Positions 27,488-52,611 of a DNA stretch of 57,248 bases are shown here, piece after piece; the first letter of the stretch is position 1, and every line of letters starts with the position of its first letter. Both the position numbers and the translations under genes were made by a program. The notes below the pieces were generated by a model. The model did not search any database. It worked only from the letters and a program-made list of their open reading frames with translations, and was not told the DNA's origin. This DNA comes from Prochloraceae cyanobacterium (GTDB lineage Bacteria > Cyanobacteriota > Cyanobacteriia > Cyanobacteriales > JASJDA01), in contig JASJCW010000003.1 in NCBI GenBank assembly GCA_030065265.1, forward strand, positions 1 to 57,248, in the 5' to 3' direction.

Positions 27488-27889
27488 ATGTCTGCTGTTG
27501 ATGAAATCATGGACAAGCTAAAAACCCTAACTCTATTAGAAGCATCTGAGTTAGTCAAGAAGATTGAAGAAGAATTTGACGTTAGTGCTGCTGGTGGTGG
27601 CGGCGGTATGATGATGATGCCAGGAATGATGCCTGGCGCGCCTGGTGGTGCTGCGGCTGAGCCTGAAGAAGAGAAAACTGAATTCGACGTTATGCTCGAA
27701 GAAGTTCCTTCCGATAAGAAAATCGCTATCCTCAAAGTGGTTCGTAAGCTTACTGGCTTGGGACTTAAAGAAGCTAAAGACGTGGTTGAATCTGCACCTA
27801 AAGCTATCAAAGAAGGCATTCCCAAGGATGAAGCTGAAAGCATTAAGAAAGAACTCGAAGATGCTGGTGCTAAAGCTAGCGTGAAGTAG
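27488..27889 (+). CDS. rplL: 50S ribosomal protein L7/L12
   Basis: [19 protein letters not shown] and GLGLKEAK motifs. Confidence 0.98.
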
Positions 27890-27928
27890 TCTTTTCAAAT
27901 AAATAAGGCAGAAGGCAGAGGTAAGTTA

Positions 27929-28073
27929 GGTCAGAGGTAATAAGATTGAAAATTAGTCGATTTATTTTCAATTAGTAGAACAAATATTATGTTTGTACCC
28001 CTGACCCCTGACCTTAAAAGGCGCAGCCTTCTGACCTCTGACCTACTGGCACCCAGTGCCCTGACCCCTGACC
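27929..28073. repeat. Dispersed structured element, copy A, with GGTCAG/CTGACC heptamer arms
   Basis: Shares identical blocks with 43341-43453; lies between convergent rplL and the ORF ending at 28074. Confidence 0.85.
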
Positions 28074-28454
28074 TCAAGACTTACAAACCCATTTCCATAA
28101 AGGATGAGCCGGGCCGGTAGCCCGGATTTTTTTTACTTGTTGTTTTAAGCGATATATTTCTTTTTGGGGAATTCCTTGAAGGATATTTCTGCTTTGCCAA
28201 GTTAAAACTGCTGCGGTCACGCCAATACAAGTAGCTAAACAAATACTAGAAAATCGATTATAATACAATCCATACCTAACTGCTATCCAAGTAAAATCCT
28301 CCAACCATAAGGAAAATTCTTGTCGCAGTCCCCAAATTCCAGCAGTTCCCAAGGTCAACCAACAACCAAGTACGAACAGCCAGCGACCGTAAACAGTTAA
28401 TTGATGTAATTTTTTAATTTCGCTCTTAAACTTGCGATCTAATTGTTTCATCAA
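28074..28454 (-). CDS. Conserved hypothetical membrane protein
   Basis: Two hydrophobic segments; LHQLTVYGRW and I...GP.HPLWKWV pattern of cyanobacterial hypotheticals. Confidence 0.7.
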   Translation of the reverse strand: MMKQLDRKFKSEIKKLHQLTVYGRWLFVLGCWLTLGTAGIWGLRQEFSLWLEDFTWIAVRYGLYYNRFSSICLATCIGVTAAVLTWQSRNILQGIPQKEIYRLKQQVKKIRATGPAHPLWKWVCKS

Positions 28455-43272: not shown

Positions 43273-43492
43273 GGGAACAGGGCACAGGGCAAAAGTAGCA
43301 AGTAGCAAGTAGCAAGTAGTCAGTAATTAATGGGGTCAGGGGTCAGAGGTAATAAGATTGAAAATTGTTTTATTAGTATCAAATTAGTAGAGCGATTATT
43401 ATACTTTAACCCCTGACCCCTGACCATAGGCGCAGCCCCCTGACCTCTGACCTTACAAAGATGCTCCCTACGCCTCCCACGCCTCCCCCCTA
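43273..43492. repeat. Composite repeat region: GGAACAG/GGCACAG and AGTAGCA heptamers plus dispersed element copy B (43341-43453)
   Basis: AGTAGCA x3; block identity with 27929-28044; CCTCCC repeats at the 3' end. Confidence 0.85.
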
Positions 43493-43512
43493 CGCCGATC
43501 GCACTATTTTTT

Positions 43513-43541
43513 TTGATTTCAAGCTCGATATGAGATATAAT
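43513..43541 (+). promoter_or_regulatory. Sigma70-type promoter of the rpmH operon
   Basis: TTGATT, 17-bp spacer, TATAAT. Confidence 0.6.
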
Positions 43542-51855: not shown

Positions 51856-52611
51856 TTAAGCTTCTTCTAAATAATTATATTTCTGGTTATAAATATAAAC
51901 TCCACTTTCTAGATCTTCGGCAATTTTTTCCAGCCAAGAACGAAAATTGACAGCAACTAATTCGCGATCGTCACAATCGTGCCACAAAGTAATAATTTGC
52001 CCGTAATTACCATTAATATCTGGATCTAAATCCAAACAATCCTGATTTCCAGCCCCATCGTAATACCATTTTTCAAAAGTAATAAGATACTTAATGCAGG
52101 TAAAAAGGTCAGGAGTCAGAGAGGTCGTCGCTGCGCTCCTCGTGCGGCAAGCGGAGCAGGGGTCAGACAATACAAGCTTTTTCAACTTTTTTCATATTTT
52201 TAAATAAAATCGCTATGTATTTTGCTATTTTTGCAAATTGGTATAAGTTATCGGAATCAATTTCGGATTCCACCAATAATTTATTTTTATTACTCTATCT
52301 AGTTCGCAATAGCTACTGAAACATTCGGGATCGTCAAATTCTCCAGCATCAAATAATTCTTTCCACACTTTCTATTCTTCGATTATTCTTTTTAAACCAA
52401 TAAGCTTAAAATCATCAATCCAAATAACATTAAGTTTCTCTAATCCATTATGAATGCGATAAGATGCTTTAGAATCTTCAGGAAATTACACACCTAAAAT
52501 AGCTGCTGTATTTTCGCTCTCTGCTTGACTTGCTCCAGGTTCTAAACGATTTAAAATTGCTGGATCATTTATTTTTAACCAAGCTTCGAGCCGCTCCCAA
52601 ATTCGATCCAT
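51856..52611 (-). pseudogene. SMI1/KNR4 family immunity-type protein, pseudogene
   Basis: ATG 52611 gives MDRIWERLEAWLKINDPAILNRLEPGAS...LGV*FPEDSKASYRIHNG; stops at 52486-88 and 52372-74; frameshift before WWNPKLIPIT; MITE insertion; resumes YDGAGNQDCLDLDP...GQII. Confidence 0.85.
52064..52243. mobile_element. 180-bp MITE with 15-bp imperfect TIRs and TAA target-site duplication
   Basis: TAA|TACCATTTTTCAAAA ... TTTTGCAAATTGGTA|TAA; excision restores codons I-T-Y-D-G. Confidence 0.85.

Follow-up and report, generated by a model that had tools for sequence, protein, structure and literature searches.

Heptamer-repeat islands with a lineage-restricted AT-rich core in a cyanobacterial genome

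The short tandemly repeated repetitive (STRR) heptanucleotide sequences of filamentous cyanobacteria were reportedly first described by Mazel et al. in 1990. For Nostoc punctiforme, Elhai et al. are said to have described in 2008, together with mini-transposons, the small dispersed repeats (SDR), which are tiny gene-less sequences of 21–27 nt lying in heptamer arrays or nested in one another, and whose hairpin shape is reportedly kept through changes on both arms. For the P6b stem of the Nostoc trnL intron, one account describes degenerate heptanucleotide repeats whose pairing produces a hairpin and which differ in repeat number as well as in insertions and deletions of non-heptamer elements (PMC3488679). 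Another describes heptamer repeats of Nostoc and Xanthomonas as occurring in inverted pairs and as varying strongly between relatives (PMC4692102). For Anabaena sp. 90, 147 MITEs that lack a matching IS are described (PMC3542288), and GTAG-tagged REPs are reported to occur in cyanobacteria (PMC3733652).

The DNA that we analyzed is a stretch of 57,248 nt (the window), contig C152 of the genome G000, which is a 379-contig draft of 5.48 Mb and 91% complete. The octamer GCGATCGC (HIP1) is found 5501 times in G000 against about 25 occurrences expected from base composition, i.e., about 222-fold, and by this abundance the genome is cyanobacterial in type, HIP1 having been described as hyper-abundant in cyanobacteria (PMC5861425). 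A sequence-only reading of the window had pointed out two copies of an element of about 115 nt in which an identical scaffold alternates with two variable segments of fixed length (V1 and V2), and it had offered a structured RNA, possibly with guide-like loops, an attC-like site or a non-autonomous mobile unit as explanations. Both copies, A (27929-28044) and B (43341-43453), were found where it had placed them. A global alignment of the two has 116 columns, of which 94 are identical and 22 differ; the left block is identical over 26 nt and V1 and V2 are of equal length in both copies (15 and 17 nt), as had been claimed, and the differences include one 3-base gap in the spacer preceding the GC hairpin. 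The differences are clustered. The four longest identical runs add up to 67, a sum that only 45 of 20000 permutations of the columns reached, so this is a real pattern for which chance does not account. The ends pair as proposed: the whole islands fold with z = -3.9 (A) and z = -6.5 (B), and none of 200 shuffles was as stable for either copy. The two inner hairpins were described correctly for copy A, which forms both, but copy B forms neither and instead folds its core as one long G.U-rich hairpin centred elsewhere.

The element is by no means restricted to two copies. A first similarity search of the whole assembly gave 20 matches. We then aligned 16 copies by hand, built an nhmmer profile from them and ran it for five iterations; at E <= 0.01 it gave 57 matches in G000 to an AT-rich core some 52 nt long, and five of the 57 are interrupted or truncated. 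Where a match is partial, either truncation or a nested 100-nt insert accounts for it in every case. Conservation across the whole family is seen in the box AATTAGTAGAAC and at the left end of the core. The listed core copies are all flanked by tandem heptamers, with purine/G-rich units 5′ of the core and C-rich units 3′ of it, and the heptamer words vary from copy to copy. Most cores occur singly and scattered over the genome; contig C106 has two that are separated by 56 nt. In the largest subfamily, which has 15 copies, the similarity extends beyond the core by about 30 nt on the left and 25–30 nt on the right, and no duplication is visible at the points where it ends. The repeated unit of this subfamily is about 115 nt long, and its arms consist of heptamer-like words which are not complementary.

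Seen against this family, A and B are composites of three parts (Table 1) and not a two-copy element with a scaffold. Their resemblance comes from arms made of generic heptamers, from mini-hairpins of one and the same type, from the boxes conserved throughout the family and from a left block that was exchanged recently, and they differ at those positions where family members normally differ; the pattern of identical blocks and variable windows would thus follow from a modular build combined with short-patch exchange between copies. We consider it probable that each 115-nt element is layered selfish repeat DNA typical of cyanobacterial STRR heptamer islands rather than one functional scaffold unit. 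The first layer would be the inverted 7-base arrays, G-rich and then C-rich, which together would make up a long imperfect palindrome. The second would be the central, gene-less and lineage-specific AT-rich core of about 52 nt, to which the 15-copy subfamily would add an arm of about 30 nt on each side (about 115 nt in all), and the third the tiny GC hairpins with a C-GCA-G loop that would have been inserted in the C-rich arm.

Table 1. Features of islands A and B in the window, and copies of the nested element of about 100 nt
Feature	Position	Strand	Content and basis
Copy A left arm	27907..27941	+	Five G-rich heptamers (GGCAGAA, GGCAGAG, GTAAGTT, AGGTCAG, AGGTAAT); read from sequence
Copy A AT-rich core	27941..27993	+	V1 and V2 lie inside; nhmmer match, fold
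Copy A hairpin 1	within core 27941..27993	+	ATTGAAAAT / ATTTTCAAT
Copy A family box	within core 27941..27993	+	AATTAGTAGAAC
Copy A hairpin 2	5′ arm and loop in core; 3′ arm to ~27996 in adjoining right arm	+	Fold
Copy A right arm, first part	27994..28013	+	C-rich heptamers TGTACCC, CTGACCC, CTGACC; sequence and fold
Copy A mini-hairpin insert 1	28014..28030	+	AAGGC-GCA-GCCTT at 28018-28030, inside C-rich array
Copy A, two further CTGACCT heptamers	28031..28044	+	End of the element as given in the sequence-only reading
Copy A continuation	28045..28074	+	Second mini-hairpin GGCAC-CCA-GTGCC at 28048-28060 and two more heptamers
Copy B left arm	43274..43352	+	G-rich heptamer arrays: GGGAACA-type, AGTAGCA x4, GGGGTCA / GGTCAGA, AGGTAAT; sequence, fold
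Copy B AT-rich core	43353..43405	+	nhmmer match; covariance-model match of 51.6 bits
Copy B right arm	43406..43453	+	CCCCTGA heptamers, imperfect mini-hairpin GGC-GCA-GCC (43428-43436), then CTGACCT x2
Copy B outer C-rich repeats	43460..43514	+	CTCCCTACGCC-type repeats, HIP1 site, run of eight T (43507-43514)
Nested element of ~100 nt	C106:19239-19338, C50:2814-2913, C230:3785-3840, C120:7750-7849, C160:44935-45033, C239:10879-11027		Copies in G000

Copy A is located 18–40 nt past the stop codon of rplL, between convergent genes; its left arm begins 18 nt past this stop codon and pairs with the right arm in the fold. The covariance model described below matches it at 27938-28001 with 63.7 bits, and when the copies were folded singly it was among the best-folding members of the family. 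An insert identical to its first mini-hairpin insert is present on contig C176. The continuation of the island, which lies beyond the limits originally drawn, reaches the stop codon of the convergent ORF on the minus strand (28077-28454, 126 aa); this ORF has no Pfam match and its DNA is conserved in G001 and G002, two further genomes of the genus. Downstream of island A the terminator scan still finds a canonical terminator at 28109-28133. This plus-strand hairpin with its run of eight T is situated inside the 3′ part of the 126-aa ORF, and the end of the ORF and the rplL terminator therefore appear to overlap. Metatranscriptome contigs (runs X13 and X14) cover rplJ/rplL up to 27671 and in addition a 32-nt piece (27807-27838); element A is outside the covered span.

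The genes on the two sides of copy B are a DUF2808 gene and rpmH. Its core has the same derived left block as copy A and a different middle. The island terminates with the outer repeats, the HIP1 site and the eight T ahead of a promoter-like site of rpmH, and despite these final eight T the terminator scan called no terminator in it. The whole island of about 240 nt is absent in both G001 and G002, and G001 has a terminator-like hairpin in its place. At the corresponding locus of G002 upstream of rpmH (L133) we found an unrelated long and perfect MITE-like palindrome where G000 has island B, which makes the spacer preceding rpmH look like a hot spot of palindrome insertion.

The host range was determined with a covariance model made from 42 copies, i.e., the 40 best complete copies fetched as loci together with A and B; of the 57 cores, 15 were left out (five interrupted or truncated, ten weaker). 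Under the stricter filters of Infernal the model gives 57 matches in G000 and 22 in G001, and none in G002 or the 58 other genomes of the order that were scanned; the core family is thus present in 2 of 61 genomes. A strict IUPAC pattern, which recovers nine copies in G000, hit a single stretch in 185,579 species genomes; this stretch, which lacks heptamer arms, looks like a chance match. The same pattern gave 13 stretches in the metagenome collection. Eleven of them are members of the core family with heptamer arms, ten of which match G000 loci by their flanks and one of which (L137) has no evident counterpart; the remaining two are the same chance sequence. Going by metagenome labels, the genus comes from microbial mats, and the family to which G000 itself belongs has only three species genomes in the collection. 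The plasmid and phage collections gave no match. Rfam at the gathering threshold has no match to the element; its only entries in the window are an L10 leader and a tRNA, and the surroundings of copy A give only sub-threshold chance matches.

Having a large number of copies at hand, we analyzed whether the inner hairpins are maintained in the family. In the alignment of the 42 copies hairpin 1 is paired in 82% of the cells and hairpin 2 in 67%. Column composition alone gives this much pairing, as 287 of 500 shuffles equal or exceed it, and the observed covariation score was reached by 269 of 500 shuffles. The alternative long helix of copy B is paired to 66.5% across the family, which is likewise not above the shuffles (105 of 500 as good). 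When 52 copies were folded singly, hairpin 1 had z < -1.5 in 12 copies (mean z -0.67) and hairpin 2 in five (mean z -0.02); most core copies fold no better than shuffled sequence, and RNAalifold found no consensus structure for the 52 copies. A structured noncoding RNA with a constant scaffold and guide-like loops is thus not borne out, since covariation does not exceed that of shuffles and the hairpins are weak in most copies. The long hairpins formed by islands of the A/B type are a matter of the whole island, and were described above.

The islands belong to a much larger population of heptamer arrays, TRF giving 1449 arrays of period 7 in G000. We looked at 75 pairs of neighboring arrays lying 15–140 nt apart. 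Fifty-two of these pairs run from G to C, 11 are G-G, 10 are C-C and two run from C to G, which amounts to a strong G-rich to C-rich polarity of the islands (52 vs 2). The core is present in 11 of the 52 G-then-C pairs; the rest hold other small centers, some of which are repeated.

We collected the mini-hairpins with a crude screen that asked for C-rich heptamer units on both sides of a perfect 5+3+5 hairpin. It gave 20 matches, nine of which are directly abutted by CTGAC-type units as judged by inspection. These nine count as eight different stems around GCA, GTA or CCA loops: AAGGC (twice), GAAGC, GGCAC and GGGGC (each twice, with different loops), GGTAC and GTCGC. Imperfect mini-hairpins are present in B and C114. 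Judging from these stems, a compensatory pattern appears to be clear in the mini-hairpins alone. C-GNA-G loops form unusually stable DNA mini-hairpins, and by analogy the loops seen here would fit a single-strand DNA stage.

Two other dispersed elements are found in the arrays. One is GC-rich, about 100 nt long and bounded by short inverted ends; G000 holds at least four full and several partial copies of it. In three cores it is nested exactly between hairpin 1 and the AGTAGAAC box, and elsewhere it lies in phase inside G-rich heptamer arrays, AG always coming next; the copy on C239 carries a further nested insert. Rfam has no match to this element. The other is a dispersed repeat of about 45 nt (containing ...GAGGAGCGCAGCGACGACCTCT) inside CTGACC-type heptamer arrays, which is found in the window at 52092-52148 (minus strand) and at about 12 other places.

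Comparison with related genomes and with contigs from other populations shows that the islands turn over rapidly. At locus A the heptamer island of G001 differs in its AT-rich center and in its mini-hairpin, and G002 has a plain terminator hairpin only. In one X3 contig and one X2 contig, both from other populations, positions 27997-28063 are skipped, i.e., the right arm with both mini-hairpins; 10 letters fit on either side of the joint. The X3 contig spans locus A and its X2 counterpart has 18 letters on the shorter side. A further X2 contig has 140 other letters in place of island A, and the metagenome stretch L145 has a different right arm lacking the mini-hairpin of its counterpart C26:17105. 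Orthologous cores of G000 and G001 are about 60–65% alike by eye, compared with a BLAST identity of 84–87% in the flanks. A clean empty site with a target-site duplication was not found at loci A and B or in the further pairs of G001 and G000 loci; in two of these pairs (L114 and L106) we see replaced sequence and not clean excision, and the third (L096) is N-masked.

The exchange also affects short parts of the element. The 19-nt left block GGTAATAAGATTGAAAATT is found only in A, B and C280:7167 when up to two mismatches are allowed over the 26-mer, and these three copies share the left block with all three middles being different. The G001 ortholog of C280:7167 carries a left end of another type, one that is frequent among family members, and an X3 contig of 1225 nt spanning locus A has small indels relative to the window exactly at 27938-27945, inside the block. 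From the spread to three loci, the G001 ortholog and the X3 indels it follows that the block is young in G000 and has been copied between pre-existing loci. The ATTGAAAA ending, which had been likened to the end of CRISPR repeats, is indeed present in the A/B block, but this block is restricted to three loci and is a derived variant of the usual left end. Two metagenome alleles of C230:10943 (L141 and L146) differ at five of 280 positions, all of them inside 13 nt; this patch is the segment equivalent to V2. By eye the altered patch of L141 resembles the same segment of the C134 copy, and no exact donor was found for any patch. Going by these mosaic patterns, short-tract gene conversion between dispersed copies would be the simplest reading.

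The fixed-length variable windows between identical blocks and the ATTGAAAA ending could also be taken to mean that V1 and V2 specify targets, as in a programmable guide-like RNA (IS110 bridge RNA, OMEGA- or CRISPR-like guide) or in an attC-like site. These two features are all that speaks for such a reading, which we regard as hardly credible. A linked IS110 enzyme had been proposed as a check, and the IS110 DEDD domain (PF01548) is absent from the 91% complete genome G000. Of the variable segments, V1 of copy A is not unique and recurs exactly in a family copy on C210 and in a core-like fragment on C160, and V1 of copy B and both V2 segments match nothing else at <=1 mismatch. For the integron integrase (TIGR02249) the best score is 57 bits against a cut-off of 265. 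The copies are not organized in arrays or cassettes and are dispersed after housekeeping genes, the neighbors of A and B being rplL, the DUF2808 gene and rpmH. Rfam, as mentioned, does not recognize the element, and the ATTGAAAA block is the derived variant just described. The guide-, attC- and CRISPR-like readings therefore fail on the features by which they can be tested. As individual candidates we rejected the CRISPR repeat, given single and dispersed copies (apart from the two on C106) and an ATTGAAAA ending in three copies, the IS110 bridge RNA, given the lack of PF01548 and of matches to the V segments other than the two extra occurrences of A's V1, and the integron attC site, given that no integrase scores above the cut-off and that the copies stand singly after housekeeping genes.

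A linked Y1/RAYT gene had been proposed as a further check. G000 has seven intact Y1_Tnp genes, and the core might be a hairpin-ended IS200/IS605 derivative (PATE or REPIN-like) which is moved as single-stranded DNA by a Y1 (HUH) transposase acting in trans. The element is gene-less and has no terminal duplications, as in the IS200/IS605 family, and the C-GNA-G loops of the mini-hairpins would point to a single-strand stage. Against this, no core is found on the contigs of the seven Y1 genes or within 3 kb of them, and nhmmer at E <= 10 revealed no similarity around these genes; no REP-type doublets flank a transposase gene, and hairpins 1 and 2 are unlike each other and degenerate in most copies. 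On balance we hold this origin to be improbable, though far less so than a guide or attC function. A full-length parent element or a mobilizing enzyme was not found in the 379-contig draft, in which a parent could be unassembled.

We also investigated the position of the cores relative to genes, using as a crude rule the nearest stop-to-stop open frames of >=120 codons. Only one of the 57 cores lies inside such an open frame, and the median distance from the stop codon to the core is 53 nt. By the rule 41 of the 57 cores are co-directional with the upstream frame, and 42 once locus A, at which an antisense frame within rplL had misled the rule, is corrected manually (binomial p = 0.0005); in tandem gene contexts 27 are co-directional vs 11 (p = 0.014), and 13 contexts are convergent vs four divergent (p = 0.049), all of these counts, like the strand counts given next, being non-independent and overstating the evidence because the copies share ancestry. 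Folded singly, the core is more stable on the sense strand in 38 copies vs 14 (n = 52), and the whole island in 28 vs 24, which is about equal.

Such a bias would be expected if island and core were a cis-acting 3′-UTR RNA module, i.e., a mobile hairpin which ends or stabilizes transcripts and replaces ordinary terminator hairpins. The plain terminator-like hairpin that a relative has in place of the island at both loci of the window, the eight T at the end of island B, the stable folds of both islands and the preference of the core for the sense strand agree with this proposal. We nevertheless judge it unlikely, because there is no covariation beyond that of shuffles, the core hairpins are weak in most copies, the whole island hardly distinguishes the strands, locus A keeps its canonical terminator downstream, the terminator scan makes no call in island B, the orientation and strand counts come from copies of shared ancestry, and orthologous cores diverge much faster than their flanks. 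The counts leave room for a modest role at the RNA level, as a 3′-UTR hairpin, terminator or stabilizer. One could go further and regard the islands as a mobile "3′-end cassette" system that replaces terminator hairpins and whose centers are actively rewritten in short templated patches, by targeted conversion or template switching on transcribed hairpins and not by mere decay; the five substitutions inside 13 nt between the alleles L141 and L146 would be an example of such a patch. To us this is somewhat less likely still than the 3′-UTR module itself.

We therefore return to layered selfish repeat DNA as the preferred reading. Of the explanations originally offered, the non-autonomous mobile unit fits, the element being gene-less, present in many copies, and present or absent among close relatives and strains. 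The sequence-only reading had named a match to an STRR-flanked MITE as the outcome that would speak against its own proposal, and in kind a MITE-like element of this sort is what we found. Copy number, restricted host range, gain, loss and replacement among relatives and strains, and patch-wise differences between alleles are direct observations. Spreading and overwriting of the copies would be the work of recombination or gene conversion, or would proceed through single-stranded hairpins, an enzyme being provided in trans. As they are sited just after stop codons in sense orientation, the islands would be co-transcribed as 3′ UTR hairpins and may be tolerated or mildly useful there. What speaks against the selfish-repeat reading is that islands are replaced rather than neatly inserted and that neither enzyme nor parent was found; in addition the orientation bias and the sense-strand fold hint at a constraint at the RNA level which pure selfish DNA would not need.

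The pattern which resembled a guide RNA, arising from nested modules and short-patch exchange, is a warning for scans that search for programmable RNAs. At the same time, a young and well-delimited family (57 + 22 copies in two species of a poorly sampled mat genus, with strain variants) offers a handle on how STRR and SDR sequences move and are rewritten. The patch-wise rewriting and the preference for the 3′ ends of genes are the parts of most value for follow-up.

Among the known systems, REP/REPIN sequences with their RAYT and the GTAG-tagged palindromes are similar in being small palindromic extragenic repeats after genes, in having a conserved box (here ..TAGAAC) beside a hairpin and in having known cyanobacterial hosts, as far as they are described in PMC3116915 and PMC3733652. 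They differ in that our family has no repeat-flanked Y1 gene and no doublets, and that the box reads GTAG in some copies only. The MITEs, for which Nezha of Anabaena/Nostoc and the elements of Anabaena sp. 90 may serve as examples, resemble our element in size (about 115 nt), in being non-coding and in having tens of mostly intergenic copies, according to the account of the latter (PMC3542288). The ends of the A/B subfamily are inverted, and there is no matching IS in G000, as given there for the "type II" MITEs (PMC3542288). Unlike in MITEs, we found no target-site duplication or defined terminal inverted repeat for the core; its arms are tandem heptamers of variable number, and those of the largest subfamily are non-complementary.

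Closest of all is the system of STRR heptamers of filamentous cyanobacteria, with the SDR repeats and mini-transposons that lie in them. The arrays of G000 are intergenic tandem 7-mers of many types, and the inverted arrays pair into hairpins and change fast between relatives, as described for other heptamer repeats (PMC4692102, PMC3488679). Neither the host family nor the heptamer words of G000 (GGTCAGR, GGCAAGA, AGTAGCA and others) are those of the classic STRR sequences. With SDR sequences the family shares the nesting, since mini-hairpins lie inside CTGACC-type arrays, cores lie between arrays and the 100-nt element is nested in three cores; the shape of the mini-hairpins is kept by eight different perfect stems, and presence or absence differs between close genomes. 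The core, on the other hand, is longer at 52 nt than the 21–27 nt reported for SDR sequences, shows no compensatory pattern by the shuffle test given above, and is confined to two species of one genus. By comparison with the description of the SDR families, the core family is probably a new, lineage-restricted member of the known STRR/SDR/MITE-like class.
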